From positions 1-20,174 of the forward strand of contig JASLKH010000032.1 of the NCBI GenBank assembly GCA_030747675.1: a DNA stretch of 20,174 nt, in the 5' to 3' direction. Source of the DNA: Candidatus Thalassarchaeaceae archaeon. Its GTDB lineage: Archaea; Thermoplasmatota; Poseidoniia; Poseidoniales; Thalassarchaeaceae. Positions 1 through 16,900 of this stretch are shown here, in pieces. The position numbers were made by a program, and so were the translations under genes. The notes beneath the pieces are model-generated. The model saw only the letters and a list, made by a program, of their open reading frames with translations, was not told where the DNA came from and made no database searches. Within the stretch, counting starts at the first letter, position 1, and each line of letters begins with the position of its first letter.

Positions 1-681
1 TGCTCGTCTGTTTCCCATTTGTTCTACAACTTCTCGCAAAAACAGAAATGAATTCCTCCAAGGACTAACATCTCTCACGATGTATTCTTGTCCTGGAAGT
101 AGCCATATTGCAAGTGCTATGGCAAAACGCTTTCTTTCAACCCCTGACGAATACACCGAGGATATCAAATATGCAATTTTATTTCTGATAACCCGCTTAT
201 TAGGGATCCAAGGAACAAAAAGTGATTTGAGTTTCTCAATAGAATCTTCAATGACTTCCATTGGAAGTGACATAAATACATCATCATTCTTGCTAGGATC
301 AATTAAAGCGTCTAAACAACGCATCCAAGAACCCTCGTTTGTTGGACCTCCATATGATATTCCATCAGGAAAACGATGTCGCGGATGGCCATGCATCTCT
401 CGATAATACAATGCTCTTCGAACTGCACCAGGAAACCCCTCACGATCTCCATTTTCATCAAGGTCAAGGAGCAAGCCTTCAAGCCGTTTTCTTACATCCT
501 CAACTTGTTCTGGCCCAGAGAATTTCATAACTTCTCTCAGTGCAGTAAATTTCCGAGTTCGCAGCACACTTTTCTTGACCCAAGGGAAACACGCCAAGCA
601 GAAATTTCCTTGCACCATCCTGTGCTTATGAATAGCTGTAGAATATCCACAACTTGTGCAATTTCCTTGAATTTCTTCCAT
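1..681 (-). CDS. Hypothetical protein with N-terminal Cys4 zinc finger; 3'-truncated by window edge; paralog of 861-2186
   Basis: Not in the ORF track. Hand translation from ATG at 681 gives 227 stop-free codons to base 1: MEEIQGNCTSCGYSTAIHKHRMVQGNFCLACFPWVKKSVLRT...PWRNSFLFLREVVEQMGNRRA. It shares the CxxC...CxxCxPWV start, GGxTN and W-x-x-SF-x-x-x-RE-x-VE-x-M with the 441-aa neighbour. Confidence 0.85.
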   Translation of the reverse strand, partial: MEEIQGNCTSCGYSTAIHKHRMVQGNFCLACFPWVKKSVLRTRKFTALREVMKFSGPEQVEDVRKRLEGLLLDLDENGDREGFPGAVRRALYYREMHGHPRHRFPDGISYGGPTNEGSWMRCLDALIDPSKNDDVFMSLPMEVIEDSIEKLKSLFVPWIPNKRVIRNKIAYLISSVYSSGVERKRFAIALAIWLLPGQEYIVRDVSPWRNSFLFLREVVEQMGNRRA

Positions 682-750
682 ATATCGTCCCTTTTCTTTT
701 ACTTAAATTCATGTTTAGATAAATGGTGGAGAGGCGAAAACAAACCTTGT

Positions 751-860
751 TATCGCGCGGCTATTCATTAGCGATATCTGACCTATTTGAAGCCACGTAT
801 TGTTGCCTCAAATCTTCCTTCAAATTATCGGCCAATACGACCTTGTATTAAGGTCGGATT
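751..860 (-). other. Structured intergenic region: three inverted repeats, two with the same 5-nt loop
   Basis: CGACCTT/AAGGTCG (838-844/850-856, loop 845-849), TGAAGCCAC/GTTGCCTCA (788-796/802-810, imperfect, loop 797-801) and TATCGC/GCGATA (751-756/771-776). The first two loops both read AAUAC on the minus strand. No U-tract follows, so it is not called a terminator. Confidence 0.5.
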
Positions 861-2186
861 CTATTCCTCTTCATCAAAGAACATAGCATCATATTCCTCA
901 CGCCTTCTCAGCCTTCGGAGACTTCGATCACGCAGACGTTGCCTCCACCTTGTTCTATCTCCAGGCCTATCACGACTTTGATATTTCAATGGTAATTCAC
1001 GGAACAGTGGGACAATTGATTCTGCCGATTTTAAATCATCTCGCAGTGCTAATATTAGAGCAGCCACAATATCCCCCATCACCACTTCAAATTGCCCACC
1101 CTCTTGGTTTTCATCAACGTGTATGCAAATTGGTTTTGTCATTTCATTACCAACTCTCGCCACCTTTCTAACTTCAAAGTGATCACCAGAGCGTACAGCA
1201 AGTGCATACCTAGGCCCAGTTGCACACGCTTCTTCCGGCCCAATTCGATACAAATTCCCACTTTCCCCATCCACATAGAGACCATCCGCACCAATTGTCA
1301 CGTAACTTGCCATTTCTTCGACAAGTTCACGCACCCATTGGAATGATTTTGCCCATGCACTGCGCGAACATGTTAGGAATTCTCTTTCCACGTGACTAGA
1401 CCAAAGAAGAATAGCCATACGACAACGATCTGCCACAATTTCACCTAACGCACCATTTGCCATTCTCGAAAATGTCTCTCGAATAATTGGTGTAATTGGT
1501 TCAGTCGCAGCCGTTATAGTGTCTATCATCGACATCCAAGGCTCTCGCCAGTAAATGTAGGCAAGCTCCTCAATCGGTCGTTGCTCTAGACCATGAAACC
1601 TGTCAAATAATAAATCCGCAAGCATATCCGTTCTTTGACAATGTAAGTCAAAAGCAGTTGAACCAAATAGCACAGTATCAAGCCCATCATTAATCCATAT
1701 TTGCCCTCGCTTGTCAACAGTCACTAGATGTCCAGCAACATGACATTGTTCATCAATTAGTTTCAATTGAGTACGTATGGAAGATACAGAAAGAAGATGT
1801 GAATTTGTTCGCGTAGAACGTTCTCTAGCCTCAACAGACCATCGAACTTTGGCTATTACATCTTCTGCACTACCTTCTAATGCCCACCCAATGAAATCCA
1901 CCCATCCTCTTTCTGAAAAAGGAGATGGGGTATTTGTTGCTCCACCTAAAACATGCCAATCCTCATTCTGCTCCGAATTTAGTGCTTGCATGTCTCTATG
2001 TACATTATCAAAATCTGTAGTTCGATCATTAAATGAACGACCCCAAGAAGGAATGCCCGCAGTTCGAGATAATGAAGCATCCACCCAGGGATTACAAATG
2101 TCACATAAAGTTAGATTGGTATTTGGGCGTTTAGCAGCTACTGGATAATGACAACTCTGGCACGTATTAATTTCTACATCGCTCAT
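861..2186 (-). CDS. Hypothetical protein, 441 aa, N-terminal Cys4 zinc finger and Arg-rich/acidic C-terminal tail
   Basis: Long ORF with AGGTGA RBS upstream of the ATG. CQSC-x16-CDIC at the N-terminus; C-terminal block LYVDGESGNLYRI...ICIHVD...GDIVAALILALRDD. Family not recognised. Confidence 0.9.
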   Translation of the reverse strand: MSDVEINTCQSCHYPVAAKRPNTNLTLCDICNPWVDASLSRTAGIPSWGRSFNDRTTDFDNVHRDMQALNSEQNEDWHVLGGATNTPSPFSERGWVDFIGWALEGSAEDVIAKVRWSVEARERSTRTNSHLLSVSSIRTQLKLIDEQCHVAGHLVTVDKRGQIWINDGLDTVLFGSTAFDLHCQRTDMLADLLFDRFHGLEQRPIEELAYIYWREPWMSMIDTITAATEPITPIIRETFSRMANGALGEIVADRCRMAILLWSSHVEREFLTCSRSAWAKSFQWVRELVEEMASYVTIGADGLYVDGESGNLYRIGPEEACATGPRYALAVRSGDHFEVRKVARVGNEMTKPICIHVDENQEGGQFEVVMGDIVAALILALRDDLKSAESIVPLFRELPLKYQSRDRPGDRTRWRQRLRDRSLRRLRRREEYDAMFFDEEE

Positions 2187-2194
2187 ACAATCAC

Positions 2195-2521
2195 CTAGTT
2201 ATTGTGCACATCATATTGTGTGTTTCCAAAACTCCAACCTTCTTTCATATCTCTCCACTCATTGTAATTAGCCTTGTTAATTGAGTTGAGATGTTCATAC
2301 GGAGTAACATAATCAGCTGCACCACGTCTTCTACCATCTCTATCATATCCAATTTCAGGAGAATATAGAGTGTGTTTTATTCGAGCAGTATCTACAATAT
2401 TTATTCCAACGGAAAGAATATTTGAAGCATCACCAGCATATTTACAATGATAGTTTGAACAACGAATTTCCAAACTCCAATTTGGATATGATAAAGTCCC
2501 ACATTTTGGGCAAAACATCAT
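2195..2521 (-). CDS. Zinc-ribbon protein, 108 aa, N-terminus resembling the TFS/RpoM (RNA polymerase subunit M-type) ribbon
   Basis: Start moved from 2551 to 2521, where the ATG overlaps the upstream TGA (ATGA) and follows GGAG. Begins MMFCPKCGTLSYPNWSLEIRCSNYHCKY, like the M-x-FCPKCG-x-L start of archaeal TFS. No second ribbon or acidic DE hairpin. Confidence 0.75.
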   Translation of the reverse strand: MMFCPKCGTLSYPNWSLEIRCSNYHCKYAGDASNILSVGINIVDTARIKHTLYSPEIGYDRDGRRRGAADYVTPYEHLNSINKANYNEWRDMKEGWSFGNTQYDVHNN

Positions 2522-2700
2522 TCCCACTCTCCACGAAATTTGTCCGACCAATTTGAATCTTCGTCAAATTTCACATTTCCACCATCGTTGGGAAGAATAC
2601 TTTCAGTCCATTTAATGTCAAGCAATGCCTTTTGAATAGAGACATCAAGCCATTTTTCTATTTTCGTAATTATTTGTTTTATATTTTCATCTTTAGTCAT
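2518..2700 (-). CDS. Small hypothetical protein, 60 aa
   Basis: AAGGTGA RBS just upstream of ATG 2700; stop overlaps the next start codon (translational coupling). Confidence 0.7.
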   Translation of the reverse strand: MTKDENIKQIITKIEKWLDVSIQKALLDIKWTESILPNDGGNVKFDEDSNWSDKFRGEWE

Positions 2701-2717
2701 TTTATCACCTTATTTAG

Positions 2718-2825
2718 GACGGAGGCTTTGCACCTCCACGGACGTCATTCTCGCGAGTACGTCTATACGCGTAATGGCAGATAGCATGGATTATCTATCT
2801 GTATAGTAGCAACTATGCTACCTAT
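2718..2825 (-). ncRNA. Candidate structured RNA or structured 5' leader (five adjacent inverted repeats)
   Basis: GGAGG/CCTCC (2721-2737), GACGT/ACGTC (2741-2763), TACGCGTA palindrome (2766-2773), CAGATAG/CTATCTG (2778-2801), GTAGCA/TGCTAC (2806-2821). No convincing ORF. No RNA family assigned; strand is inferred from flanking genes and G-U extensions of the first stem. Confidence 0.35.
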
Positions 2826-2857
2826 TGGCCAACTCTTCTTCATTCAAAACTTAGCCA

Positions 2858-2941
2858 TTTTTCGGATCAGTCCCCGATCCCAGTTCGAGAGTAGAATTCT
2901 TTTATTCTACAAGCCAGTAATAATTGGAAAACAATTTTTAC
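2858..2941. repeat. Three-hairpin direct repeat, copy 1
   Basis: 2864-2914 matches 3104-3153 with 3 substitutions and one 1-nt indel; 21-nt identical core GGATCAGTCCCCGATCCCAGT. Stems GGATC/GATCC, GTAGAAT/ATTCTAC and GTAA-T-AATTG/CAATT-T-TTAC. Confidence 0.9.
2878..2898 (-). promoter_or_regulatory. Candidate cognate promoter of the single-subunit RNAP, copy 1 (predicted +1 at 2881)
   Basis: Minus strand AATTCTACTCTCGAACT|GGGA, a 17-nt-plus-GGGA layout like T3/T7 promoters. Function is inferred only. Confidence 0.35.
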
Positions 2942-2962
2942 AATACTATTTTGTAGATGAAA

Positions 2963-3085
2963 TCAATCATCATCACAGTAACCATCAATTCCATCCATGT
3001 TCCCCACAGTTAGAATTAATGGTCCAAGAACTGCAATACCGACTCCGATAGCAGCAACCTTGAACAAACCTTTGAAAAAGCCCAT
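2963..3085 (-). CDS. Micro-protein, 40 aa, probable single membrane helix with acidic tail
   Basis: Below the ORF-track cutoff. AAGGTGA RBS then MGFFKGLFKVAAIGVGIAVLGPLILTVGNMDGIDGYCDDD*. Lies exactly between the two repeat copies. Confidence 0.65.
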   Translation of the reverse strand: MGFFKGLFKVAAIGVGIAVLGPLILTVGNMDGIDGYCDDD

Positions 3086-3097
3086 TTTATCACCTTT

Positions 3098-3176
3098 TTT
3101 TTGGGATCAGTCCCCGATCCCAGTCCGAGGGTAGAATTCTTTATCCTACAAGCAGTAGTGAAAACAAACTCACTAC
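3098..3176. repeat. Three-hairpin direct repeat, copy 2
   Basis: Offset 240 bp from copy 1. Stems TGGGATC/GATCCCA (3102-3108/3116-3122), GTAGAAT/ATCCTAC (3131-3137/3143-3149) and perfect GTAGTGA/TCACTAC (3155-3161/3170-3176). Confidence 0.9.
3118..3138 (-). promoter_or_regulatory. Candidate cognate promoter of the single-subunit RNAP, copy 2 (predicted +1 at 3121)
   Basis: Minus strand AATTCTACCCTCGGACT|GGGA versus phage T3 promoter AATTAACCCTCACTAAA|GGGA. Directly upstream of the RBS and ATG of the 40-aa ORF. Function is inferred only. Confidence 0.35.
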
Positions 3177-3211
3177 ATTCCAACTCAATTTTTGATGTGT
3201 TTACAGGATAT

Positions 3212-3331
3212 TCATATTGAACTTCCATGGCAAGGCCAGAAAATTTCAAACACAATATCACTACAAGTTCGACATAGACCATCATAAACAGATAATCCGC
3301 GTCGCCCACATCCTTCATTACATTCAGTCAT
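3212..3331 (-). CDS. Micro-protein, 39 aa, Cys4 zinc finger
   Basis: Below the ORF-track cutoff. GGTGGAG RBS then MTECNEGCGRRGLSVYDGLCRTCSDIVFEIFWPCHGSSI*; C-x3-C-x11-C-x2-C spacing. Confidence 0.55.
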   Translation of the reverse strand: MTECNEGCGRRGLSVYDGLCRTCSDIVFEIFWPCHGSSI

Positions 3332-3345
3332 TTTTTTCAACTCCA

Positions 3346-3371
3346 CCATCCTCTCGAAAACGAGCCGATGG
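3346..3371. other. Stem-loop just downstream of the RNAP stop codon
   Basis: CCATC-ct-CTCG-aaaa-CGAG-cc-GATGG. No U-tract follows on the minus strand, so a processing or stabilising hairpin is as likely as a terminator. Confidence 0.4.
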
Positions 3372-3390
3372 CTCTAGGGGGGAGAATACC

Positions 3391-6300
3391 TTAATCTAGG
3401 AAGAAAATGGAATCCAGTACGTCTTTTAAGTCGAGTCCTCGGCCACCATTGGCGGTGCAAAAATCCTTTCTTAATTTCTTAATTTGCCCCGCAATTTCCT
3501 TCGGTAATTTCAAATTTTCATGTAATTCCTTGAAGGTTTCAAGTGTAATTTTTCGTAGAGTATCAATATCAGCTGCATGGGTTCCAAATGAGTCATGCAC
3601 TGCCCAGAAGTCAAACCCCTTTTGTTCTCCTTCACAATATGTTGACATTTTATTCACAACCATTGCCATATGGGCGCCATCAAGAGAGTGTACATAATTT
3701 GCAGCAATAGATGTCGCTACCTTATTCTTTGGAGAGTTTTTGTCGTAGACCTCAACTCGATCATCTTCCTTAAGTCGAGCAATCAATTCCTCTTTGGAAC
3801 CAGTTTGTAGAATGAGTTTTTTCTTTTTTCTTTTTGAGTTTCTTTGCCTGATAATTTCTTTTAATTCCCTTCGTGACATTTTGCCGTAATAGTCCACCTT
3901 TTCAAGAGGGGGATGACTAATGGTGAAAGTACAATTGATTGTACCTCGAAGATACGCATCTAGATCTTTAGCAAAGTTATGTTCATCACCTTGCTTTATT
4001 AATTCATTTAGATTTTCAATGTATGATACCTCTGAATCCCATTCGATTTGCTTATTCCCGTATTCAGCATTCCATTTTTCTATAACGTGACTTAACCTCC
4101 AACTTCTTTCTCTTGTCGTAGGGTGTGTTTGCCCTTCTTTCAACTTCGATCCAACTAGATAACCCAAATCATCTTCAGTCAAAATTTTTTGATTATTGTG
4201 AAGTCTTTCTTCTTGTTCCCGTCTTTTCTCGAGCCAATAACTATCAACAGCAACAACCTTTTTCTTTCCTCCGACTTCCATTTTGGGGTTCTTTACATTT
4301 GAGAATTTTAATTCGGTTCTTTCAGGGTACCGATTTTTTGTTTTGAAACCAGTGGGAACCTCCCAATTCAATTCGTGATAATCGTTTTCATCAGAACTGA
4401 CTGAGTTTTTCATTGTCTCACGGTATTCATGGTATTCTGGAGCCTCTATTTTGAGTGCCTTTGTAAAAAGTAGAACAATATCTTTGCTAAATCGTATTTG
4501 TTTTCCAGGTGGGACTAATGAATCATCAATGCCCAAAACGTCATAGAAAAACGATGCTTTATGCCACATTTTTCCAATTTTCATCTTCGGTTTCTTGCCT
4601 TTGATTTTCCCATTCTCTTCCCACAATTTCCACTTTTCGTTATATTTTACCCGTTCTTCAGGATTTTCAGGTACCATTCCATTCTTTTTTCCATTATGTG
4701 TTACAAATTGTTCCCATTGATTATGTAATCCTGCCCCATATGCACTTTGCATTACAATGGGTTTGGCTATACTTCTCCCATTTGTGAATATTTTTTCGTA
4801 TATCTTGGATAAATTAGCCTTATTTTTATTGGTAACAAGTTTTGTCAATTTCTTCTTCGTATCTCCATGGTTAGCTAATTTTTCCGCTTGGTTCGCGACG
4901 AGTTGATATAGGTCAGATTTTTGATTTTTATTATCAGTTTTAATCACATTGACTTTACTTGCCAATTCGTATGATCTTAAAAGAGCAGAAATGTGTTGAT
5001 AACCATTCACAGTCGCATCTAGATTGACAGGTTGATTGCTCATTACTTTATCCCAATCACCACCATTCCTGTCAAAATCGTCCCATGCTTTCTTCATGGC
5101 AATTGTGTTTGCTAGTCTTAAGAAAGCCTCATTTTTCTTTCTTGGATCAGACCACCACCCACCTTCTTTTTGAACCGTAACATAAGACATTGGTTTTTCA
5201 GCAATTTTAGAAAGCATATCGCGTTTTTCTTCAGTCCACTTGGCTCTTTTTTCAAACGATTCCCCCTTCATTTCTCCATAAAGGTTGCACACTTGCACTC
5301 GTAGCCAAAAAGCCCCCCTTTCACCTAAAGGCCTGGATTCCCTAAATACAATTGAAGCCTTTTGAAAATCTTCACCTTGTGGACTCAAATTGGGATGGGA
5401 ATACAAACGCCCTCTAAAATCGCATGAGAAAGGATTCCAGAAAACAGAACCATATTCAGAGGGATGATTCTTGTTTTCTTTGTCATAGTGCCAAATTAAT
5501 CTATCTATGGTGTCCAAAGTCATTTTCCAATTACTATATTTTTCCCAGATATTCAGTCTTGAAGCATGGGATGAACATTTTTTAAAATTATCTTTTCGTG
5601 ACTTTCTTTCCCTGCAAGATTCAGTAATACCTGCATTGCATTTAGGATGAGGGCATTTCACGCGTTTTATACAGAATGCAGCCAATCTTTCTTTAATTTC
5701 GGGTCTGAAATCACGATTAAAAACTCTCATTTGCCTGCCATCCGACCTACTTTTTTCAGAATTACCCAAACTAATTGCTTTGATGAAATCTTCATTAATT
5801 TTCCATTGAGTTTTTTGCAAGTTATTGAGTGCTTTACGCACTCCTTCACCAACATCTTCAACACGCTCCCAATCATCTTCTTCAAACCGTCCATGTTTGA
5901 GAACAGTTTTCCTGTGTTGTTTTTGTAAGGGCCCACCATATAATTCGTTCTTACTTTGACTTTTTTGTGCATTCAGCAATGCCTCAACTTTTTGAGGATC
6001 ACCTCTAATTCCACTTAGATTTTCAAAACGGTGTTCAGAAGGCCTGCAATTCATGTATCCCCCGGGGTATGGCTGATAGACCCTTAATGCGGCACTGGGG
6101 TATCGTGCTTTACTTTTCGAGAATTTATTCACACTGTTTTTTTCTTCCTCATTAATTTCTTTAATCATGTCGTCAGTGAAGTAAATTAAACTTCTAACTT
6201 TGTGATGCTGATCATACCATTCATCGGGAATTTTGTCGTCAGCAGAAAAACGATCATCACCATTCCTTTTGTAAAAATCAATGGGGTTTTGCCTTTCTTC

Positions 6301-7014
6301 CTCTGACATTTTTCGAATTCTAGTCCAATTTAATTCACAACTGCAAATGGCAATAATGCAATGATGAGCAACATAGAGGCCCAATTCGTTTCTTTTGGCT
6401 AGTGGTGAGAGGCCTTCTAATGCATCTGGAAAGTCATTAATAAGACTTTGAAACCTCTCCTCATCTTCCTTGTTCGTCTGAATGGTTGATGCAATTTCTT
6501 GATACATATCAGGCAACAAGCACCTAAATTCCCATCCATCCTTTTTTTCAATTGGTCTTACAGCCCGCAAAACAGCTCTGACAACATCTCCATAGAATTT
6601 ATTTTCACTATTGGCAAGTTTTTCTTGCATATATTTTTGAAATAATATCTTTGGAGCCTTGGAATTACCGTGCACCTTTCTTTCTTTCAGATCACGGAAA
6701 AACCCACCTTCTTTTTTGATGAATTCTTCTAATTTTGTAGCTAAATTGGAAACGATTCTCTTTGCCTCTTCTAAATCGCTAAAAGCTTTGGACATTGTAA
6801 TTGTAAATGGGCTTGAATTACCACTTCTAATACTCTCTAAGCGATGTTGTTGCACAACTAAACCAGCATGTTCATGAAATTCATTCGCCTGAGCAGAAGT
6901 CATTTTTTCCTTTGTTAACAAATCAGGTTTAGATATCCCGATATTTTCTAACCAATCATACCAATCCTCACCGGGTGAAAGGGGAACGGGTACTCTGTCC
7001 ATTCTCTCTCCCAT
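3391..7014 (-). CDS. Single-subunit DNA-directed RNA polymerase (T3/T7/mitochondrial family), 1207 aa, with zinc-finger and SAP-like insertions
   Basis: Motifs in canonical order: ALNNLQKTQWKIN (T7 AINIAQNTAWKIN); CDFRGRLY (5421-5401); PLGERGAFWLRV...NLYG; motif A LDATVNGYQH (D666 = T7 D537); motif B R747-x3-K751-x7-Y759G (T7 R627/K631/Y639); WEVPTGF (T7 WVTPDGF); AANYVHSLDGAH (T7 APNFVHSQDGSH); motif C VHDSFGTH (D1141 = T7 D812). Start could be Met5 at 7002, which follows GGGAG. Confidence 0.97.
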   Translation of the reverse strand: MGERMDRVPVPLSPGEDWYDWLENIGISKPDLLTKEKMTSAQANEFHEHAGLVVQQHRLESIRSGNSSPFTITMSKAFSDLEEAKRIVSNLATKLEEFIKKEGGFFRDLKERKVHGNSKAPKILFQKYMQEKLANSENKFYGDVVRAVLRAVRPIEKKDGWEFRCLLPDMYQEIASTIQTNKEDEERFQSLINDFPDALEGLSPLAKRNELGLYVAHHCIIAICSCELNWTRIRKMSEEERQNPIDFYKRNGDDRFSADDKIPDEWYDQHHKVRSLIYFTDDMIKEINEEEKNSVNKFSKSKARYPSAALRVYQPYPGGYMNCRPSEHRFENLSGIRGDPQKVEALLNAQKSQSKNELYGGPLQKQHRKTVLKHGRFEEDDWERVEDVGEGVRKALNNLQKTQWKINEDFIKAISLGNSEKSRSDGRQMRVFNRDFRPEIKERLAAFCIKRVKCPHPKCNAGITESCRERKSRKDNFKKCSSHASRLNIWEKYSNWKMTLDTIDRLIWHYDKENKNHPSEYGSVFWNPFSCDFRGRLYSHPNLSPQGEDFQKASIVFRESRPLGERGAFWLRVQVCNLYGEMKGESFEKRAKWTEEKRDMLSKIAEKPMSYVTVQKEGGWWSDPRKKNEAFLRLANTIAMKKAWDDFDRNGGDWDKVMSNQPVNLDATVNGYQHISALLRSYELASKVNVIKTDNKNQKSDLYQLVANQAEKLANHGDTKKKLTKLVTNKNKANLSKIYEKIFTNGRSIAKPIVMQSAYGAGLHNQWEQFVTHNGKKNGMVPENPEERVKYNEKWKLWEENGKIKGKKPKMKIGKMWHKASFFYDVLGIDDSLVPPGKQIRFSKDIVLLFTKALKIEAPEYHEYRETMKNSVSSDENDYHELNWEVPTGFKTKNRYPERTELKFSNVKNPKMEVGGKKKVVAVDSYWLEKRREQEERLHNNQKILTEDDLGYLVGSKLKEGQTHPTTRERSWRLSHVIEKWNAEYGNKQIEWDSEVSYIENLNELIKQGDEHNFAKDLDAYLRGTINCTFTISHPPLEKVDYYGKMSRRELKEIIRQRNSKRKKKKLILQTGSKEELIARLKEDDRVEVYDKNSPKNKVATSIAANYVHSLDGAHMAMVVNKMSTYCEGEQKGFDFWAVHDSFGTHAADIDTLRKITLETFKELHENLKLPKEIAGQIKKLRKDFCTANGGRGLDLKDVLDSIFFLD

Positions 7015-7099
7015 GAGACTTCATGCACCACAATTGACTTCAAATTGACCGAGTAACTCTCAGGATTAATTTCATCCGTAAGAACTCAAGGGTCGAAGC

Positions 7100-7654
7100 G
7101 TGGATAACTCACTTTCCCTTGAGATAGGCCTTCCTGGCACATTGCTTTCCGAGGCTTATTTTGATTGTCGCTTCTCTTGTTTGAGAGAACCCCTTGGTTT
7201 TGCCCGAGGAGCTGAAAGGCTAGCAGATGACCCCGAGGCAATCCACGCATGGTGGGAAACAGCCAAAGGCCAAGTTCTTGCAGTTGGTAGAATTCATAAA
7301 ATACCCAGTAATTCGGCTGGATCCCAAGCAGACCATGCAGGGCTCAATGCAACACAGTGCCCTCCTTTCACCCCACTTGAAGAAAATGGGAACTTGCGCC
7401 CTGCTGTGCAAATTCGACAGATGGGGACGCGAAATGAATGGCGTAGGCAAGGGCTAGCTAGTGGACTTGTAGTTGCATTGGAAGCGGCTGCAGTAAGTCA
7501 TTGGGGGGCGAAAAGTGGCTGGCTTCAAGCACGTATTGAAGCAATACCAATGTATGAAAGTGAAGATTGGGACCAATATGGAGACGAATATGATGTCAAA
7601 GGCATTGGACCCCATTGTTCTATGTGGAAAATATTTGACCACTCGGAGGAATAA
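7100..7654 (+). CDS. GNAT family N-acetyltransferase (ElaA/YiiD-like)
   Basis: GTG start; acetyl-CoA motif QIRQMGTRNEWRRQGLA, then WLQARIEAIPMY and GPHCSMWK typical of this GNAT subgroup. Confidence 0.85.
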   Translation: MDNSLSLEIGLPGTLLSEAYFDCRFSCLREPLGFARGAERLADDPEAIHAWWETAKGQVLAVGRIHKIPSNSAGSQADHAGLNATQCPPFTPLEENGNLRPAVQIRQMGTRNEWRRQGLASGLVVALEAAAVSHWGAKSGWLQARIEAIPMYESEDWDQYGDEYDVKGIGPHCSMWKIFDHSEE

Positions 7655-7655
7655 C

Positions 7656-8456
7656 ATGCTTTCAGATGAAGACACTCACTTTGCTATTTGGCTGGATAGA
7701 ATGTTAACAAAAGAGCCAGATTTACGTCAAAGCTTGGGTGTTGAAAAGGAGGCTAAAAGGGCATCTACAATCCCCCGAATAATTTTGTTAGAAGATGGTG
7801 AACCAGCAGCCTATGCTGAATTGCGTAGAGTGGGAAGAGCCGTTGAATTAGCAACAGTAGTTGTAGATCCTGAACAACGTGGCCGGGGTTTATCCCATGA
7901 TTTAGTTCACCAAGGATGGGAAAGATGGCGCCAAGATCCAATAGTACATGGCCAATCTGTGATGCCTGAGATCAATTTCGCACAAGCGTCCCTACAGGAG
8001 GAATCTAATCAGACTGCGTCTATTGTGAGAGGACCCCTTATTTCGTTCACACGAGACCCAGCAATGGCCGCAGCTCTTATTGGAGGCGGTTTCACATTAA
8101 TACCCAAAAAACGTAGACCATCCCGCCTTTGGCTGTGGAAATCCGATAATGGGATATTACCGATTTCAATTCAATTATCACTTGCTTTTGATCGTCTTGG
8201 ACGAGGTCTCCGCCTATTGTTTACCCAACCAAAAAATCTCATTCATTTCCTACAAAATACTCGAAAATATCGCTTGTTTGTGAGAGTCCCTGAAGATGCA
8301 GAACGACTACCTCCTCGAATGCACTCTCGCTCCCAAAGAGAATCTGACGCACCCCAGGGCATTGCTCCCGATGTGATTGACCAACTAGAAGTGGTAGGGT
8401 ATTCTCCTGAAAACGAATCTTCAGGTCAAGTCAACGCCTGGGATGAAGGAGAATAA
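7656..8456 (+). CDS. GNAT-domain protein with C-terminal extension, 266 aa
   Basis: Start moved from 7515 to ATG 7656 (GGAGG RBS, 1 nt after the upstream stop). Motif A VELATVVVDPEQRGRGLS. Confidence 0.75.
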   Translation: MLSDEDTHFAIWLDRMLTKEPDLRQSLGVEKEAKRASTIPRIILLEDGEPAAYAELRRVGRAVELATVVVDPEQRGRGLSHDLVHQGWERWRQDPIVHGQSVMPEINFAQASLQEESNQTASIVRGPLISFTRDPAMAAALIGGGFTLIPKKRRPSRLWLWKSDNGILPISIQLSLAFDRLGRGLRLLFTQPKNLIHFLQNTRKYRLFVRVPEDAERLPPRMHSRSQRESDAPQGIAPDVIDQLEVVGYSPENESSGQVNAWDEGE

Positions 8457-8460
8457 ACAG

Positions 8461-10746
8461 TCAAAGCCGCTGTCGTGCATTTCGTTGCGCATCAACTGCA
8501 CAAATTGCTGCCATGTGAACTACATCACGAACAGCATCTCCTCGTTGAAGTACATGGACTGGTTTTGCCATCCCTTCTAGAATCGGTCCAGTCATTTCAG
8601 CACCACCCAATCGTTGTAGAAGTTTGTAAGAGATATTGGCTGAAGCAAGGTTTGGGCAAATGAGTACATTGGCTGGCCCATTCAAGGTCATGAATGGATA
8701 ACCCTCTTGGATGTCTGGAATTAATGCAGTATCAGCCTGCATTGGACCATCAATAATCAGAGAAGGATCCAATTCACGTGCTATACTCAGCGAATCTTCA
8801 ATGCGATCAGTTCGAAACTCTCCTGATGAACCAAAGTTAGAGAATGACAGAAGAGCAACCCGCGGTTCAACTCCAAATCTCTTTGCTACTCGCGCCGTTT
8901 GAATTGCAATTTCCGCTAGTGTTCTCTTGTCAGGATATATGTTGATAGTTGCATCACCAATGAACATTAATTTCCCTTTAATTGTCATCATGTAAGTTCC
9001 AATCACACGATGTGCATTTTCATCGGTGCCAATTGTTTCTAGACAAGGTCGCAAGAAGTCAGGATAATTTCGTGCAATTCCTCCGATAATACCGTCAGCA
9101 TCGCCTAATTCAACCATCATTGGCCCGAAGTAAGTTCTAGATTTTAGTAGCCGCTTAGCATCGGGCCTCGTCACACCCTTACGCCCTCTTTTCCTGTGCA
9201 GCGCGTCAGTGTAGGTTGTAGAACGCCGCGAGTCTTCCCGCGGATCAATCATTTCACATTCAAATTCAAGGCCTAATTCTTCTTTCATTGCCTCGATTTC
9301 GTGAATTCTACCTAGCAATACGGGTTTACAAATTCTTTCTTGAATGCATTGCGCTGCGGCTTTGAGCATTGTGGGATGATCACCTTCACAGAAGACAATA
9401 CGTTGTTGATTTCTGGCAGCACGATCCATCACTCCGCGCATAATTGAACGGGTCAAACCCAACCGACTTTCCAACTCATTTCGATAATTGTCAATATTGA
9501 ATGAAGCGGCAACTTCGGGACTTACTTTGCCTTCTGCAACAGCAGTAGCTGCCACAGCACTGGCTTCCCACATGAGAACTCTTGCATCGAACGGCTTTGG
9601 AATCAGATAATCTGGTCCAAATTGAATTTGCTCTCCACCATAAGCAGCAGCAACATCGTCTGGAACAGGTTGTTTTGCCAAGGTGGCTAACGCATGGGTT
9701 GCAGCCATTTTCATACCTTCAGTAATTTCAGTAGCTCTAACATCGAGCGCACCACGGAAAATGTATGGGAAACCCAGAACATTGTTGATTTGATTTGGAT
9801 AATCAGAACGCCCGGTTGCTATTATGGCATCATCTCGAACTTTTTGAACTTCTTCAGGCATTATTTCAGGTGTTGGATTTGCTAGAGCAAAAATCAATGG
9901 ATTTGAGGCCATTCTTTTTACCATTTTTCCGGTAACTAATCCTCCTTTAGAAAGCCCAAGGAATACATCGGAGCCAACTAATGCATCTCCCAAGTTACCA
10001 TCAGGAACATCTCGAGAAAATTTAGCCTTGTAGCGGTTTAACTCACCAGCATCCTTGCGTTTTGTAGTAAGAATGCCTTTGGAATCACACATCAACAAAT
10101 TTTCCTTTCTCACACCTAATCTGACATAGTGTGTAGCACAAGAAATGGCACTAGCACCTGCACCAGATACAACGACCTTAACTTGACTAATATCTTTGTC
10201 AACGACTTCAAGGCCATTTAGCAGAGCAGCACCTGAAATAATTGCAGTCCCATGCTGATCATCATGCATCACCGGAATATCTAACTCTTTTACCAATCGC
10301 TTTTCAATTTCAAAGCACTCAGGGGCTTTGATATCTTCTAAATTGATGCCGCCAAAAGTAGGAGCAATTCGCTTTACGGTATCTACAAATTCATCAATGT
10401 TTTCAGCATCAACTTCAATATCAAAGACATCAATATCTGCAAATGCCTTGAATAATAACCCCTTCCCTTCCATCACTGGTTTACTTGCTAAGGCGCCAAT
10501 ATTTCCTAGGCCGAGAACAGCTGTACCATTGCTGATAACAGCAACCAAATTCCCTCGTGCCGTGTATTCCATCGCCTTGTGAGGATCTTGCTCGATTTCC
10601 AAGCAAGGATATGCAACTCCTGGTGAATATGCTAATGATAACTCACGCTGAGTTGAATGAGGTTTTGTAGGGACTACTGTGATTTTTCCACGGGGTTCTG
10701 ATGAATGATAATCGAGCGCATCCTTACGGAGTTGTTCATCGCTCAT
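8461..10746 (-). CDS. maeB: NADP-dependent malic enzyme fused to a phosphotransacetylase-like domain
   Basis: [69 protein letters not shown], followed by a PTA-like C-terminus ([37 protein letters not shown]). Confidence 0.97.
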
Positions 10747-10932: not shown

Positions 10933-13900
10933 ATGATTACCCCTGAGGCCACTGTGACCCCAGATGGAAAGAGACGTGCAATATCTCTCGTTACAATTAT
11001 GATTTTGGCATCTTGGTTGCCCATGGGAACTCCTTGGATTGCAATTGCTCATGCTGGTGTTGTGGCAGAATGGGGGTCTGAAGGATCAAACGATACGGGC
11101 TGGATTCAGTTGAATGCAACATTACCGAATTCGTTGGCTCAATCAGCAACAGCGGACTTAATGTTAGATTTCGCTCCAGGGGCAGCAATTGATAATTTAA
11201 CATTCGAAATACGTGTAAATGGCTCAGATGGAATTTGGGTTGAAGAACCTCAAATTCTCTTACCTGACGCCCCGGCCAGTCTATTGGATTGGCGTGGCCT
11301 TGGAGCTTTAGGTCAACAAAATAATTTCATAGGGAGCGACCCCCACACAAGTCGCCTCTCTCCTAATAGCGATTCAAATGCAGGCTGGGTCTTACCTGGT
11401 GGTGCAACAATAACTGATGTAGTCATCGAAGCATTACGGCCAGCGGACCCCTTAGTTTCCATGCAAAGAATCGAAGTTAATGTTGCAGATACAGATATTC
11501 ATCCCATTGATGGCCGTCTTTATTGGGCATCTGGTGACTCACTTGTGCAAGTAGATTCTCAAAATAATCCACCAGTGATTGAAGTGTTTGATTTGGATCA
11601 AGACATCCTCGCTATATCAGTTGATAGTTTCAACAATATCATTTATGTTGCATCTAGAGATGAAAATGCAGGGTATTTGCATGTTTATTCTTTGATAGAT
11701 TCTAGTTACCTCGGTGAAGTCACAACACCAGGATTAACATTTTCAGCATTGGCAGATGGCGGCTTTGGGGGGCTATGGGCCTCAGATGGTGACGGATTAT
11801 ATTCTGGTAATTTCCAACTTTCAATGGGAACGCCGATGGTGACTTGGACGCGAGTAGTAGACCTTGCAGTAGGAGCAAACCATGCAGCTACTGACATTAT
11901 GGTACTCAGTACCGATGTGTGGATTTCGACTGATGGTTCGGGATTATATCATTACGATGCTAGTTCCGGTGCAGCCAATCATTATGATACACAGAATGCC
12001 TTGCCTAGTGATAGAGTAATTGATTTAGAAATGGCCGGTTCCCACTTGTTGATTGCTACAGCTGATTCAGGAGTATCACGTCGCGATGTATCTACAAATT
12101 CATGGCTTGCAACTTGGACTAACGGAAATTGGCTTGCAAGCAACTCAATCGCCTCACTTTCTTCAATCGACGGTTGGGTCCACATTCTTGCAGGCGATAC
12201 GATACATGCATACAATACCACAAGTTTGTCCTTTACGAATGCATGGACAATGACAGATTTGTCCCTATCTCGGGAAGTAGGAGATTCTCTAATTCCTTGG
12301 CCTCACGGCGGCTCTCGTTCACCCTCAAATCACAGTGTTTTGGTCGGTGACTCTTCTGGAACATTTGCAGTACTTCATCCTTCATTACCCAGTCATGGTA
12401 TTTCTCAAGGTTCATGGGATCAAATGATTTTTGCAACGGGTCCAAGCGAAGATCAAATGCGTGATGCAATTGAACTAAATGGAATAATTTACATTGCGGC
12501 CGGTGAAAAGGTTGAGCGCTTTGATATGAATAATAATCGATGGTTGAATCCATTGACTGGTAACTCAGCGCCTTACTCAAGTGCCATTCAGTGTATTGCA
12601 ACCGATGGCACGAACATCTTCATCGGAAGCGAAAGTTCTGGAGTCATAATGATTACAATTAATGGCACCACAGTAATTTCTGAAAATGCAGCACAGTGGG
12701 TTACAGCCGACGGCCTTTCCTCTAGTGAGGTTGGAGACCTAGCCTACGAGTCGGCCACAGGTCAAATCATCTCCATGCACCCTTTTGCAGGTATTTCTGT
12801 CATAGATCCTACTAATTCAACAGTTCCTCAAACATGGACCGAATTTAATGGCCTCAATTCAAATGATATTACTGCCTTAGCAGTCCGAGGAGGTATCGCT
12901 TATGCGGGCACAAACAATGACGGAGTTGAGAGAATTGATATTGTAAATTCCACTTTGCTGACTCCTTGGACATCAACAGGAATGGACGATGTTGATGCAA
13001 TGCCTATTGCCATTGACGGCTCCACACTTTATCTTGGGATGTATGGGTTTGGCGTTCTCGTTTACGATATGTCAACTGGTGAGCAAACAGGACTATGGCA
13101 AAGAACGGGAGGGAATGGACCAGGTCAATCTAACCAAATTCCATCAAACAATGTTCTTTCCCTTGCAATTCTCACTCCCGGTACTGTACTTGTTGGTACA
13201 AACAATGGGGGTGCACAGCACACATCTAGCGGTTGGTCTAATATGGGTAACACTGGAAATGAACGAGCAGATCAATTTTATGACTGGGATTTCGATAATC
13301 AGCACATCTATGCTGCTACTGAAACAGGTGTTTGTCAGTGGACTAGATCAGGTCTTCAATTCCAAAAGTGCTGGGATGATAACCCAGATGGACTTCCTGG
13401 GGAAGATACCTATGCGATAGAATTGATTGAACCCAACCGAATTTGGGTCGGCCAAAATGAAGGGGCAGGAGTCATAGATGTAACCAATGATTCAGTGATT
13501 AAGAGTTGGGAAGCAGGAGTTAATTCAGGTAATGCAAAAGTCATCGTCATTGGCGACGTGGCATATTTGGGCTATGATGGAATAGGTATTCTTCGATATG
13601 ATTTGGTTACAGATGAATGGCTTTCCCCATGGGACGCTGTAACTTCTAATCTCATTGAAAGTAATGGAGTTACAGCCATGGTTCAGGACATTAATCCAAA
13701 CCGCATTTGGGTTGGAGGCGATATGGGACTCAACCTCATTGATGTTGTCAATGCAACGCTCGAAAAAGATTGGGACTCAGGAAGTAATTCAGGTGGAATC
13801 ACACTTTCCAACCAAGAGCCCGGGGAGCTAGTAATCGTTGGCGATACGATGTATTACATGCAGGTCCGATTTGGAAATAATGGATATTCATCAAACGATA

Positions 13901-16900
13901 ATATTTACCGTTATGATATAATTAACATGACTCAACTCAGTACATTGGATGTGGGTAACTCAGAAGGATACTCAGCATTGGTCCATGGAATGGGTGCAGT
14001 TGGAGACATCATTCATTTTGGAATATCTCCAACTAATTGGTGGCAAGGAGATGGCCACATGGTTCGTTGGAATCATACCAGTGGGGCATGGATGGACTCA
14101 ATTGAAGCTAAAGGACAAGTTGAGCGAGTAAATGCACAATTTGCAGGTGACTGTAACCCTACACCCACAAATTGCCATCTTTATGCAGCATATGGGAATA
14201 CCCCCTTACATCAGGTTGACATGAATGGAAACCTTGTGCGTTCATGGGATGATTCCGTTCTCGAGGGTCCAATCAGAGGAATCGCGACATGGGATGGTAC
14301 AGTACTCTTTGGTACAGAAGACGGCATCTCTCGGTACAACTATTCAAGCAATACTTGGTTATCTGAATGGACTTCCAACAATGGTTTACCCAACAATGTT
14401 GAGGATGCCGTATACTCAATGGAAACAATAGGGGATGATCTGTGGGTTTCTACAATGGCCACGTCAGGCTGGAATCGTAATTCGAAGATATTGCAACTCA
14501 ATGGAACATCAAATCAGTGGACAGTTCATGATGTAGGTAGTGGGCAAGTTCCTGAAGGGTATGGCGCTGATATCGGTATTTGCAATGATATTGTTCATGT
14601 GGCATTGAATCGGTGGGCTGGATGGGGTAGCCAAGGAGGCGTTGCTCGCTATGATTTATCGACAGGAAATTGGCTATCGGATTGGAATCAGGGCGCAGGG
14701 GGATTGCCTCATGACAATCCCGTTGCCATTGCGTGTGATGATGCTTACCAAATCACCTACATCGGATTTGAAGAAGACGATGGGTCCATTGCTCGCTATG
14801 ATTATGTCAATCAACAATTCCTTGCAACATTAGACGAAGATGACAACGTGGTAAGTGAACCAATTTTCCCTGGTGCAATGCAGTATCAACTTGGTAGTTT
14901 ATTGGTTGGACACTATGATGGCGGAGGAATCACATATATTTCCACAACCGGGCAAATTGTAACGGCCGTTATTCCATTCAGTACGGATGCAGAAGCAACT
15001 AGCATTGATCTTGTCCCAGGTCAGACATTTGAATTTGCAGTTGGCCGGGCTGGTGGAGCAAGTGGATATAATCGAGTTGACAACCTAAATGGAAATGGTT
15101 TGAACCCTGGTGCATGGGATAATCTCGCAACACTTTCTACAGGTAGAATCGCAGAATTCACAGGCAACTCAACCCATATTTGGGCAGTACCAATAGATGA
15201 CTTTACTTCGACATATGGTACAGCAATTCTTGAAGGTGAGTATCAGTCTAATGGGAGTATTGAATGGACTCGTGCATGGAACCTAAATGCTGAATTGGTC
15301 AATGAAATTACACTTGATGGGAACACTCTGTGGATTACAACTACAGGGTTAGGTTTACACCAAATCGATTTGGTAAGTGGTAATTATACCTTCACAGGAT
15401 ATCCATTGCATGGGCAAATGGACGGTTTGACTTGGTATGGTAATGAATTAATTGTGGGTTTAATGGGAACACCTTCAACAGCTGCTGGAGTCCAACGATA
15501 TGACACCTCTACAGGACAATGGGGTGCCGGCCGCATTTCAGCAGGCCTGCCGAGTAATTTTGTCCGAGATTTCGAGAAGATTGGTGATTTAGTTTACATT
15601 GCAACACTTGCTGGAATTGGTGTTTGGAATTTATCAGCAGATGATTGGGAAGACCCAATGACAACCGCCGATGGTTTACCAACTCCATTCATCACACATC
15701 TCGATTCAGACAACGGTATCCTCCTGATTGGCACGCCTTCCGGTTTGATGTCATACGAACCTGGCCTTGGTCTTGGACAAATGTACGGCCGCAACCAGGG
15801 TTTGGTTGGAGACTCAGTTAATGGCATTGCCAAGATTATAGATCCTGCAACAGGAATTACTACTCTTTTCGTTAGTCACAACGGAGAGGGCCCAACACGA
15901 CCCGGATTTAGCGAAGTTGTTCCAGTAACTCCAACAAGCCCTCCTGGTGTTGTTTATACAGTTCTAGACACAACGTTAGTCGACATATTACCAAGCAACG
16001 GCATCACTGCATTAGCTAGTGATTGGTGGGGTATCCACATTGGAACTGACGCTGAACCATTGATGCATTGGAATGCATCTGGTAACGAAATGGAGCAAGG
16101 AGCCTCAATTTCAGGATTGTCGTCGTGGCCGATACAGCACATGGATAGCGACGGCCAAAATATAATTGCAATTTCCAGCATGGGTGTTGATTTGATTGAT
16201 GTGACAACTGGATTACATCCTTCCACTCAATTGATTTCATATGCCGGTCTCTCCGCCGGAACAATTTCTTCTAATGGTGTGTACATTGTTGGGATGGATG
16301 GCTTACATGTATGGAGCGGCCACCCTAGTTTCATTGAGATTGACAGGTCTTCCATGAGACGTGCTGACCCATTAACGATTACTTTAGGCGGAAGTTCTGG
16401 AAGTTCTTTAGATGCAACTGATGAAGCACGGCCGGGTAACAAAATTACCTTGATTAATTCAAGTAATGCCGTGTCTATTCCGGCTTTTGGAACAGCAGGC
16501 CCAGGAAATATCCCAGTGACACAAGACATGCTTACACTGTCTAGTCCAGTATCGGGTGCAGCAACGTGGGTGGCAAGCACTCGACTAAATTATTCAGGTT
16601 CATGGGATTTAGCGGCCTTGAATAGTAATCTCCAAACAACAGTACAAGTTGCTATTGATAATAGTGTATTGACTTCAATGGGGCGCTCATTACATATTCA
16701 ACTACAATCACCAGTTAACGGCTCTCTTGAAGTTCGACTAACCTATGACTGGGTAAGAACAGAATCTCCAAGTGAGATGATTGATCTCTTCGATCGCCCT
16801 GAAGATGGAGGGGGCACATTGATTGCTCAGTGGACAGTAACACAAGACCACTCTTTCAATGCGTATCAGATATATTTGCGTCCGAATAGTAATTGGACAA

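Follow-up and report, generated by a model that had tools for sequence, protein, structure and literature searches.

What is a T7/mitochondrial-type single-subunit RNA polymerase (RNAP) doing on the chromosome of an archaeon? Archaea are, to our knowledge, held to transcribe with one multi-subunit RNAP together with TBP and TFB, and a TBP gene is present in the metagenome-assembled genome (MAG) G000 of an uncultured Candidatus Thalassarchaeaceae archaeon (Marine Group II, MGII; Poseidoniales). Contig C32 of this MAG, 20,174 bp long and analysed whole as the window, carries an intact gene for a phage-type RNAP. The assembly comprises 1.68 Mb in 100 contigs and is 78% complete. We favour, at a probability of roughly one half, the explanation that the gene is part of an optional cassette which places the phage-type RNAP at the head of a resident operon for a ubiquitin-like protein (Ubl), coupling transcription by this enzyme to the operon and to several small proteins. 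Our literature search found no paper on a phage-type RNAP or on the Ubl locus in MGII or in other archaeal chromosomes. Genomes are labelled G (G000 being the source), loci L and metagenome runs X1 to X5, and the locus of the window is WIN; c1-long stands for p441, c1-short for full-length p227, and c2, c4, c9 and c16 for further families of neighbour proteins. The cassette and its borders are as follows.

818..7037, minus strand: cassette of 6,220 bp with RNAP, p45 (questionable), p40, p60, p118 and p441, present in part of the population
3391..7014, minus strand: intact T7/mitochondrial-type single-subunit RNAP of 1207 amino acids (aa), PF00940 and phrog_414
818..826, no strand: left direct repeat of 9 nt, CTTCAAATT; at the joint seen in X5 the 9 letters fit either side
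7038..7046, no strand: right direct repeat of 9 nt, CTTCAAATT, 24 nt upstream of the RNAP start codon
7047..7099, no strand: host intergenic sequence between the cassette and a divergent GNAT gene, the probable site of the host-type promoter for the RNAP gene, to judge by the boundary

The limits of the cassette are set by natural populations that have it and lack it. Logan contigs of four seawater runs were mapped to positions 1-9000 of the window. Junction contigs in X3 (2017) and X5 (2025), which come from separate studies, join 816/817 to 7037/7038 and skip 6,220 bp. In X3 the two flanks are covered at depth 13 and 13.6, the cassette contigs at 6.5-6.6 and the joined (empty) form at 5; cassette and joined form together come to about the depth of the flanks, which means that two forms coexist, and the depths suggest that about half of the population carries the cassette. 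The junction contig measures 67 nt, close to the length that a k=31 graph would be expected to yield at a true junction with a 9-nt overlap. The initial annotation had treated positions 1-7014 as one co-oriented module and had named metagenome coverage against the flanks as a check. The genes from RNAP to p441 do act as a module, being gained and lost together in natural populations; its real limits are 818-7037, and p227 lies outside.

Presence or absence at a single site between direct repeats is the mark of a mobile element, and both are found here. Terminal inverted repeats were sought at the cassette ends and none was seen, neither Pfam nor PHROGs revealed a recombinase, transposase or integrase in the cassette, and no virion or packaging hallmark gene of the kind that marks a provirus is present, the RNAP being the sole PHROGs match. 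The sequence at the junction upstream of the RNAP is partly kept in the related locus L057, so the insertion appears to be old. Only 23 nt upstream of the RNAP start lie within the cassette, and the RNAP gene is therefore probably read from a host-type (TBP/TFB) promoter. The GC content is 0.35-0.39 over the RNAP region and cassette against 0.44-0.46 in the host flank. The joined-form intergenic sequence, aligned to G021, G022 and G001, is too divergent to reveal an empty site, and a search for flanking direct repeats at the cassettes of G004 and G019 returned uninformative matches of 7-8 nt only. In agreement with an insertion, the sister species G013, with a MaeB 90% identical, has a 1131-aa gene directly adjoining GNATa; contig C33 of G000 shares synteny with this part of G013 and breaks off within the 1131-aa gene.

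Two local features of the mapping stand by themselves. Within the N-terminal part of the RNAP gene (6601-6900) the depth rises to 23-46 against about 5-7 beside it in all four runs; the spike consists of extra contigs at 90% likeness or more, and could reflect low-complexity Lys/Glu-rich coding or a segment common to cassette variants. Positions 1-809, the c1-short region, are a local hot spot of diversity, with about 2% difference between samples (one X3 contig differs by 16 letters and 3 indels) against only 0.1-0.2% in the cassette and the GNAT/MaeB flank.

The RNAP gives every sign of an intact enzyme. It matches PF00940 at 159 bits (cut-off 22; E 2e-46) and phrog_414 at E 2e-78, and aligns to mitochondrial and T7 RNAP over DFRGR (the DxxGR element), motif A (NLDATVNGYQH) and motif C (VHDSFGTH); motif B (RSIAKPIVMQSAYG) is visible in the translation and completes the catalytic motifs. 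The N-terminal promoter-binding domain PF14700 gave no Pfam match in the protein. A language-model search with residues 1-390 returned PF14700 and phage RNAP N-domain clusters at 0.86-0.88, to be taken as a lead only. The nearest relative is 58-60% identical (P0002, L057) and all others reach at most 38%; these other RNAPs are long enzymes of 1150-1760 aa, also without PF14700. We found PF00940 in 24 of the 301 Poseidoniales species genomes, spread over 11 of 26 genera; these counts are a lower bound because the locus often assembles as contigs of 2-3 kb and fragments are missed (L092, for example).

Related RNAPs recur at the same place. L057, G004 and G019 have theirs at the site occupied in the window, between GNATa and c1-short. 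These enzymes are 58%, 32% and 31% identical to that of the window, against 73-85% for GNATa and 82-90% for MaeB. The divergence of RNAP and c1 is far above that of the flanking genes. The initial annotation had named unrelated neighbours of homologous RNAPs as the observation that would tell against a single system. The neighbours are related: a c1 gene follows the RNAP in the same orientation in at least ten loci (WIN, L041, L042, L051, L052, L053, L006, L007, L022 and L092), which span both large Poseidoniales families. A second set of RNAPs (type-B) precedes a family of 430-aa proteins, c2, and comparison of c2 with c1 by hhalign found the two unrelated.

If the enzyme serves the genes behind it, signals that it could recognise should stand near them, and the intergenic sequences hold candidates.

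3375..3388, minus strand: motif TATTCTCCCCCCTA, beginning 3 nt past the RNAP stop, candidate promoter or terminator
3357..3374, minus strand: hairpin GAGCC-ATC-GGCTC followed by G and UUUU, conserved in L057
3098..3142, minus strand: D1 repeat, copy 1, 45 nt, with AATTCTACCCTC, ACT, a GGGATC...GATCCC stem-loop, A8, GGTGA and the ATG of p40
2858..2902, minus strand: D1 repeat, copy 2, 93% identical to copy 1

Public contigs reaching beyond the window (L096 10074, L097 4621) show the motif TATTCTCCCCCCTA again, 20 nt past the stop of c1-short and ahead of the Ubl gene. L057 has two related copies, one after the RNAP and one before the next gene, and no intergenic sequence other than TATTCTCCCCCCTA is conserved from one locus to the other; the remaining copies of the motif 10-mer in the genome all fall within coding regions. 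The D1 repeats hold degenerate versions (AATTCTACCCTC and AATTCTACTCTC), followed by GGGATC...GATCC, which could fold into a stem-loop at the 5' end of the RNA. Other clades have other motifs. In G004, G019 and G014, whose RNAPs are 70% alike, TTTTGYCGCCACA stands after the RNAP, before c1-long and after c1-short, and all its matches at 0-1 mismatch lie within RNAP loci (three in G004, and G019 and G014). In G074, G255 and G226 (family f3) the motif is AATTCCYAYACTANAGGTT, with five of six whole-genome matches in RNAP loci; it has CACTAAAGG in common with the T3 promoter, and the f3 motif is plainly T3/T7-promoter-like. The motif thus changes with the RNAP clade at constant positions, as co-evolving pairs of enzyme and signal predict. 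The clade-specific motifs fit private signals of the RNAP, and may act as its promoters.

Among the genes that such signals would govern are those of an operon that also occurs without the cassette. We extended the window leftwards through public contigs (L096, L097) that contain the exact p441 protein. Both continue with c1-short (388 aa), a 66-aa Ubl ending in VGG and an E2-like c16 gene, and the Ubl is conserved at 34-60% identity in about 20 related loci. Relatives continue with a ThiF-type E1, recognised by Pfam, and with c4, which bears the JAMM signature HTHP-x6/7-S-x-T-D; the G000 assembly lacks its own E1 and JAMM genes, which are known from the relatives. A Ubl with terminal Gly-Gly, an E1 and a deconjugating protease are thus found together through L097 and these relatives. 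The genomes G021, G022 and G001, which have no RNAP, show the order GNATa, c1-short, Ubl, ThiF and c4 on contigs of up to 100 kb, and p227 is accordingly the first gene of an operon of Ubl, E2-like, E1 and JAMM genes that exists without RNAP. The cassette therefore lies inside a resident operon, and the self-contained unit of the initial annotation does not hold.

1..681, minus strand: p227, residues 1-227 of the 388-aa c1-short, cut by the contig end, outside the cassette
682..817, minus strand: sequence upstream of p227 and beyond the cassette, holding hairpins and AT-rich, TATA-like stretches
861..2186, minus strand: p441 (c1-long), with a zinc ribbon, a helical region and a putative E2/UBC-like C-terminal domain

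The position that the cassette takes is a variable slot. G005 (L083 2333-4823) and G011 (L084 4070-6517) have a TFB paralog and an AAA ATPase in it, between c1-long and c1-short, and this TFB paralog is a full one, with a TFIIB zinc ribbon and cyclin repeats (PF00382, E 3.5e-29). HNH endonucleases occupy the slot in G004, G019, G002 and G010, and DUF6717 occurs there in G004 and G019. HNH genes are seen between c1 paralogs at L052 3670-4293, L082 686-1333, L090 1183-1722 and L099 2923-3204, and this wedging suggests turnover of a homing type in the locus. Just upstream of the Ubl gene, CCGG..ACCGGACTCGGCTCGTAGACGAGGTCAA is conserved in four members of the genus, with or without RNAP (L052 845-1017, L053 9722-9895, L080 9418-9503, L081 10679-10763), and looks like a structured leader or an operator.

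What the c1 proteins do bears on how the operon is read. The initial annotation saw a pair of paralogs in p441 and p227 and small effectors in the genes behind the RNAP. The kinship stands, both proteins being of the c1 family; the pair does not form one module, since p227 belongs to the resident operon, and at 390-440 aa the paralogs appear to be E2-like proteins rather than small effectors. Its members share a CxxC...CxxC ribbon at the N-terminus and, at the C-terminus, a conserved domain in which Cys354, Gly371-Asp372 and Asp384 are invariant. Cys354 stands inside an ICI[HD] motif and never varies in alignment A1; in A2 and A3 its conservation is 90% or more. The profile search gathered 266 cluster representatives and matched no Pfam family. 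The AF2 model has a pLDDT of 87.7 for whole p441 and 82.7 for the C-terminal domain. When the domain model was compared exhaustively by VIA-align, UBC/RWD/UEV folds made up most of the 50 rows, among them FANCL, Ubc9, E2S, Ufc1, CBASS Cap2 (7to3), a CdnG-E2 complex, the Bil E2 (8tyz) and BubCD (9eav). Foldseek searches of the PDB with the model of whole p441 and with that of the domain gave no match at E <= 0.001 (best UbcH5A, E 0.24), and the best rows of an ESM Atlas structure search were Thermoplasmatota proteins without names. The catalytic Cys of E2s sits between strand 4 and helix 2. In the model Cys354 follows a strand by 12 residues and precedes the next helix by 16; it would thus stand at the place of the E2 catalytic Cys and is a candidate catalytic residue. 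We consider the C-terminal domain probably E2-like.

The same domain is widespread in the host group. By itself it occurs in 175 of 301 Poseidoniales genomes, mostly in host proteins of 770-850 aa, and it is also found in c16. Host proteins of about 220 aa have it as well; together with the longer ones they usually number 2-3 per genome and match no Pfam family (for example L078 2203-2829, on C33 of G000). Several members of the c1 family end in Glu-Glu-Glu: p441 in FFDEEE (861-869), c1-short in NGGEEE (L097 4590-4601) and two G004/G019 paralogs in LGEEE.

Between the RNAP and p441 the cassette encodes small proteins.

2963..3085, minus strand: p40, a credible gene for a 40-aa membrane micro-protein ending in GIDGYCDDD
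2195..2521, minus strand: p118, a truncated TFS paralog; the open reading frame (ORF) is 2195-2551 and the start probably the ATG at 2521, giving 108 aa
2518..2700, minus strand: p60, 60 aa, called as a gene on four public contigs
3212..3349, minus strand: p45, a Cys-rich ORF of 45 aa, doubtful, uncalled on public contigs and not kept in L057
3016-3318, minus strand: p100, overlapping p45 and p40, not credible
2701..2857, minus strand: hairpin-dense leader before p60, without an Rfam match

Eight protein clusters, at 77-100% identity, contain p40. Homologs ending in GIDGYCDD[DE] stand beside the RNAPs of G231 and G122, from two other genera, and further homologs occur in the RNAP-less Ubl/E1 loci L099 and L103, which makes p40 part of the repertoire of the Ubl locus. 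The p60 protein has no relatives that our searches found, and no match in the ESM Atlas. The TFS-like ribbon reported for p118 proved correct in a particular sense. Over residues 1-76 of the host TFS (G000 C19) the protein shows 36% identity (E 4e-13); it consists of the N-terminal Cys4 zinc ribbon and linker followed by an unrelated 70-aa tail. It is without the C-terminal ribbon and acidic hairpin (QTRSxDEP), both present in the TFS of the host and of G122, and for want of that ribbon it is a truncated paralog of the host TFS and not a TFS. It may bind the host RNAP where TFS would otherwise dock. A word search with p118 returned its own cluster only. A match near the RNAP of G122 was considered as a part of the module and rejected, being the ordinary TFS of that genome.

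The arrangement of the ORFs and their RNA structure agree in part with the initial annotation. As it stated, the minus strand carries every long ORF between 7014 and 1, and six of its eight credible ORFs are upheld. Translational coupling, claimed for several genes, is seen at two junctions only: the stop of p60 and the start of p118 overlap as ATGA at 2518-2521, and p118 and p441 are separated by 8 nt. The remaining gaps are 41, 126, 262 and 179 nt. Cys motifs are indeed found in five ORFs, namely in an insert of the RNAP (a weak PF24623 match), p45, p118, p441 and p227. Hairpins were reported for all gaps above 50 nt, and these three gaps each fold better than shuffles, with z of -4.33 for 2701-2962 (0 of 200 shuffles as good, about eight hairpins), -2.77 for 3086-3211 and -2.64 for 682-860. 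The plus strand folds about equally, so folding energy alone cannot name the strand. A Shine-Dalgarno-like GGTGA precedes both p40 and p60. Rfam and a tRNA scan gave no match in the window. To the right of 7100 follow host genes: two GNAT ORFs, a MaeB-type malic enzyme, a 2799-aa ORF and a class IV aminotransferase. The 2799-aa ORF (10933-19332) has no Pfam match and a paralog at 30% identity on contig C47.

These parts can be put together as a cassette that heads the Ubl operon, the order of which would be an E2-like c1-short, the Ubl with terminal Gly-Gly, an E2-like c16, a ThiF E1 and a JAMM protease. The gene of the phage-type RNAP would be read by the host RNAP, starting at a host promoter in the intergenic sequence that borders the cassette. 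The phage-type RNAP would then recognise TATTCTCCCCCCTA, both behind its own gene and ahead of the Ubl gene, perhaps together with the degenerate copies in D1, and would drive p40, p60, p118, p441 and the resident Ubl operon without TBP and TFB. Expression independent of TBP and TFB, that is orthogonal expression, is plausible on the strength of the motifs and their positions. The extreme divergence, the presence and absence in populations and the kinship with bacterial operons of Ubl, E1, E2 and JAB genes by analogy point to a possible role in conflict, antiviral or between elements, which would also fit the lower GC and the HNH genes and TFB and TFS paralogs in the same slot. A fuller version, in which a domesticated phage-type RNAP and a co-evolving promoter form an orthogonal switch for a Ubl conflict operon, with the truncated TFS as a decoy on the host RNAP, is a tentative one that we rate well below even odds.

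Several observations weigh against a cassette that heads the operon in this way. G021, G022, G001 and the joined form have a working operon and no RNAP, which makes the enzyme dispensable for the operon, and c1-short keeps a TATA-like sequence of its own upstream. The T7-type core AYACTANAGG is absent from the cassette; TATTCTCCCCCCTA comes just after stops and is followed by a hairpin and UUUU, and may act as a terminator instead of a promoter; and the degenerate pattern in D1 is a post hoc definition, with no conserved D1 in L057. A search for D1 in the whole assembly, the related loci and L057 found just the two local copies, the alignment score in L057 equalling the shuffle mean. No RNA run is among the runs listed as holding the stretch. 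As to the E2-like domain, the best fold row (FANCL, Z 4.7, rmsd 3.8 over 83 aligned residues) is below the noise guide of the tool, a profile search of PDB sequences with A3 gave no match to solved E2s, and the HPN motif upstream of the Cys is not found in the c1 alignments. PADLOC matched none of RNAP, p441, p227, p118, p60, p40, p45, c4, c2 and c9.

Some of this would be explained if the cassette were a selfish element, or the remnant of a virus or plasmid, lodged in an intergenic spot, its link to the Ubl operon being one of position and its RNAP serving the element or nothing at present. Presence and absence around a 9-nt repeat that is a possible target-site duplication, GC below that of the flank, the patchy distribution of the RNAP, HNH genes between c1 paralogs in related loci and the phage origin of the nearest named RNAP relatives all agree with this. 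It is difficult to reconcile with a cassette that has no integrase, transposase, capsid, terminase or replication gene, no inverted repeats and nothing but the RNAP in PHROGs, and that holds extra paralogs of resident parts, p441 and p40. Three very different RNAP clades head c1/Ubl operons in two families, which is hard to obtain by chance insertion, and the upstream junction kept in L057 speaks for an old insertion. Scans of IMG/VR, narrow in pattern and weak, confirmed no relative of the RNAP and none of c1 (19 stretches fitted the c1 pattern and 0 passed tblastn). We regard such an element as unlikely. RNAP-primed replication, raised by the initial annotation together with a selfish element, has nothing that speaks for it.

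An ordinary operon of the host RNAP would account for the hairpin and U-run directly after the RNAP gene, for motifs placed just after stops, for strands that fold about equally, for GGTGA before p40 and p60 and for the missing T7-type core; hairpins, D1 and C-rich motifs would then be terminators, attenuators or elements of RNA processing or stability, and the phage-type RNAP would have its task elsewhere, for example in priming or R-loop formation. Yet each RNAP clade has a motif of its own at unchanged positions, the f3 motif is T3/T7-promoter-like and almost confined to RNAP loci, and no replication genes are nearby; we think this arrangement improbable. That phage DNA was misjoined to an archaeal contig by assembly or binning is scarcely credible. 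The fragmentation and incompleteness of the MAG, in 100 contigs at 78%, and the lower GC of the cassette would permit it, but RNAP, p40, p60, p118 and p441 are joined to the 2799-aa gene, MaeB and GNAT on independent contigs from ENA (32.5 kb), JGI and Logan, at least 65% of the stretch is present in each of five runs from four studies, and some related RNAPs lie deep inside archaeal contigs of 175 kb and 451 kb.

New in this analysis are the exact limits of the cassette and its coexistence with the empty form in nature, the occupation of one site by unrelated RNAP clades, the covariation of motif and clade across three clades, the E2-like reading of the paralogs and the assignments of Ubl-GG, JAMM and TFS paralog. 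If the phage-type RNAP does head the Ubl operon, some very abundant ocean archaea would have a second, private transcription system in the cell, a natural counterpart of the orthogonal RNAP-promoter pairs of synthetic biology, and its at least three clades and motifs might be mined for new pairs. The link of Ubl, E2, E1 and JAMM extends findings on bacterial ubiquitin-like antiviral systems to archaea, and the arrangement suggests how a Ubl system might stay expressed under an attack on host transcription. Cassette-plus and cassette-minus haplotypes that coexist in seawater amount to a natural experiment.

Among known systems, prokaryotic operons of Ubl, E1, E2-like and JAB genes (Iyer, Burroughs & Aravind 2006, PMC1779556) are the nearest to the resident operon, and such operons have antiphage forms in Bil, Bub and CBASS Cap2/Cap3 (PMC10557695, PMC11601596). 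The archaeal operon resembles the bacterial ones in its small Ubl-GG, ThiF-type E1, JAMM/JAB protease and probable E2-like proteins and in being a variable, fast-evolving locus. It differs in its archaeal host, in E2-like and JAMM genes that no PADLOC or Pfam model recognises, and in E2-like proteins with an N-terminal zinc ribbon, a helical region and tandem paralogs. The archaeal locus, known from its genes alone, further has a slot with a phage-type RNAP, TFB and TFS paralogs and a membrane micro-protein.

For p118 the parallel is Sulfolobus TFS4, a TFS paralog turned into a virus-induced inhibitor of RNAP (Fouqueau et al. 2017, PMC5715097). Both zinc ribbons are retained in TFS4, where inhibition is exerted by lysines of the C-terminal ribbon; the model in that paper places the N-terminal ribbon on the RNAP funnel (PMC5715097). 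Both proteins are paralogs of the host cleavage factor in which the capacity for cleavage is lost; p118, unlike TFS4, has no C-terminal ribbon and ends in an unrelated 70-aa tail. Since TFS4 works through the ribbon that p118 lacks, p118 would by this analogy be a docking competitor at most.

The early region of T7 and T3, phages of the Autographiviridae, has the RNAP as gene 1 and the promoters of that RNAP immediately after it, and late T7 mRNAs start with a stem-loop followed by a strong Shine-Dalgarno sequence. The cassette differs from these phages in lying on an archaeal chromosome with no other phage genes, in having parts of a Ubl system as its downstream genes, in an RNAP of 1207 aa with large inserts and no detected PF14700, and, in the clade of the window, in a C-rich motif without the TATA-like -4 to -1 region of the T7 type. 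It shares with them a single-subunit RNAP with DxxGR and motifs A, B and C, short motifs after the RNAP gene and before the downstream genes, and predicted transcripts that, like the T7 late leaders, would start with a stem-loop and then a strong Shine-Dalgarno sequence.

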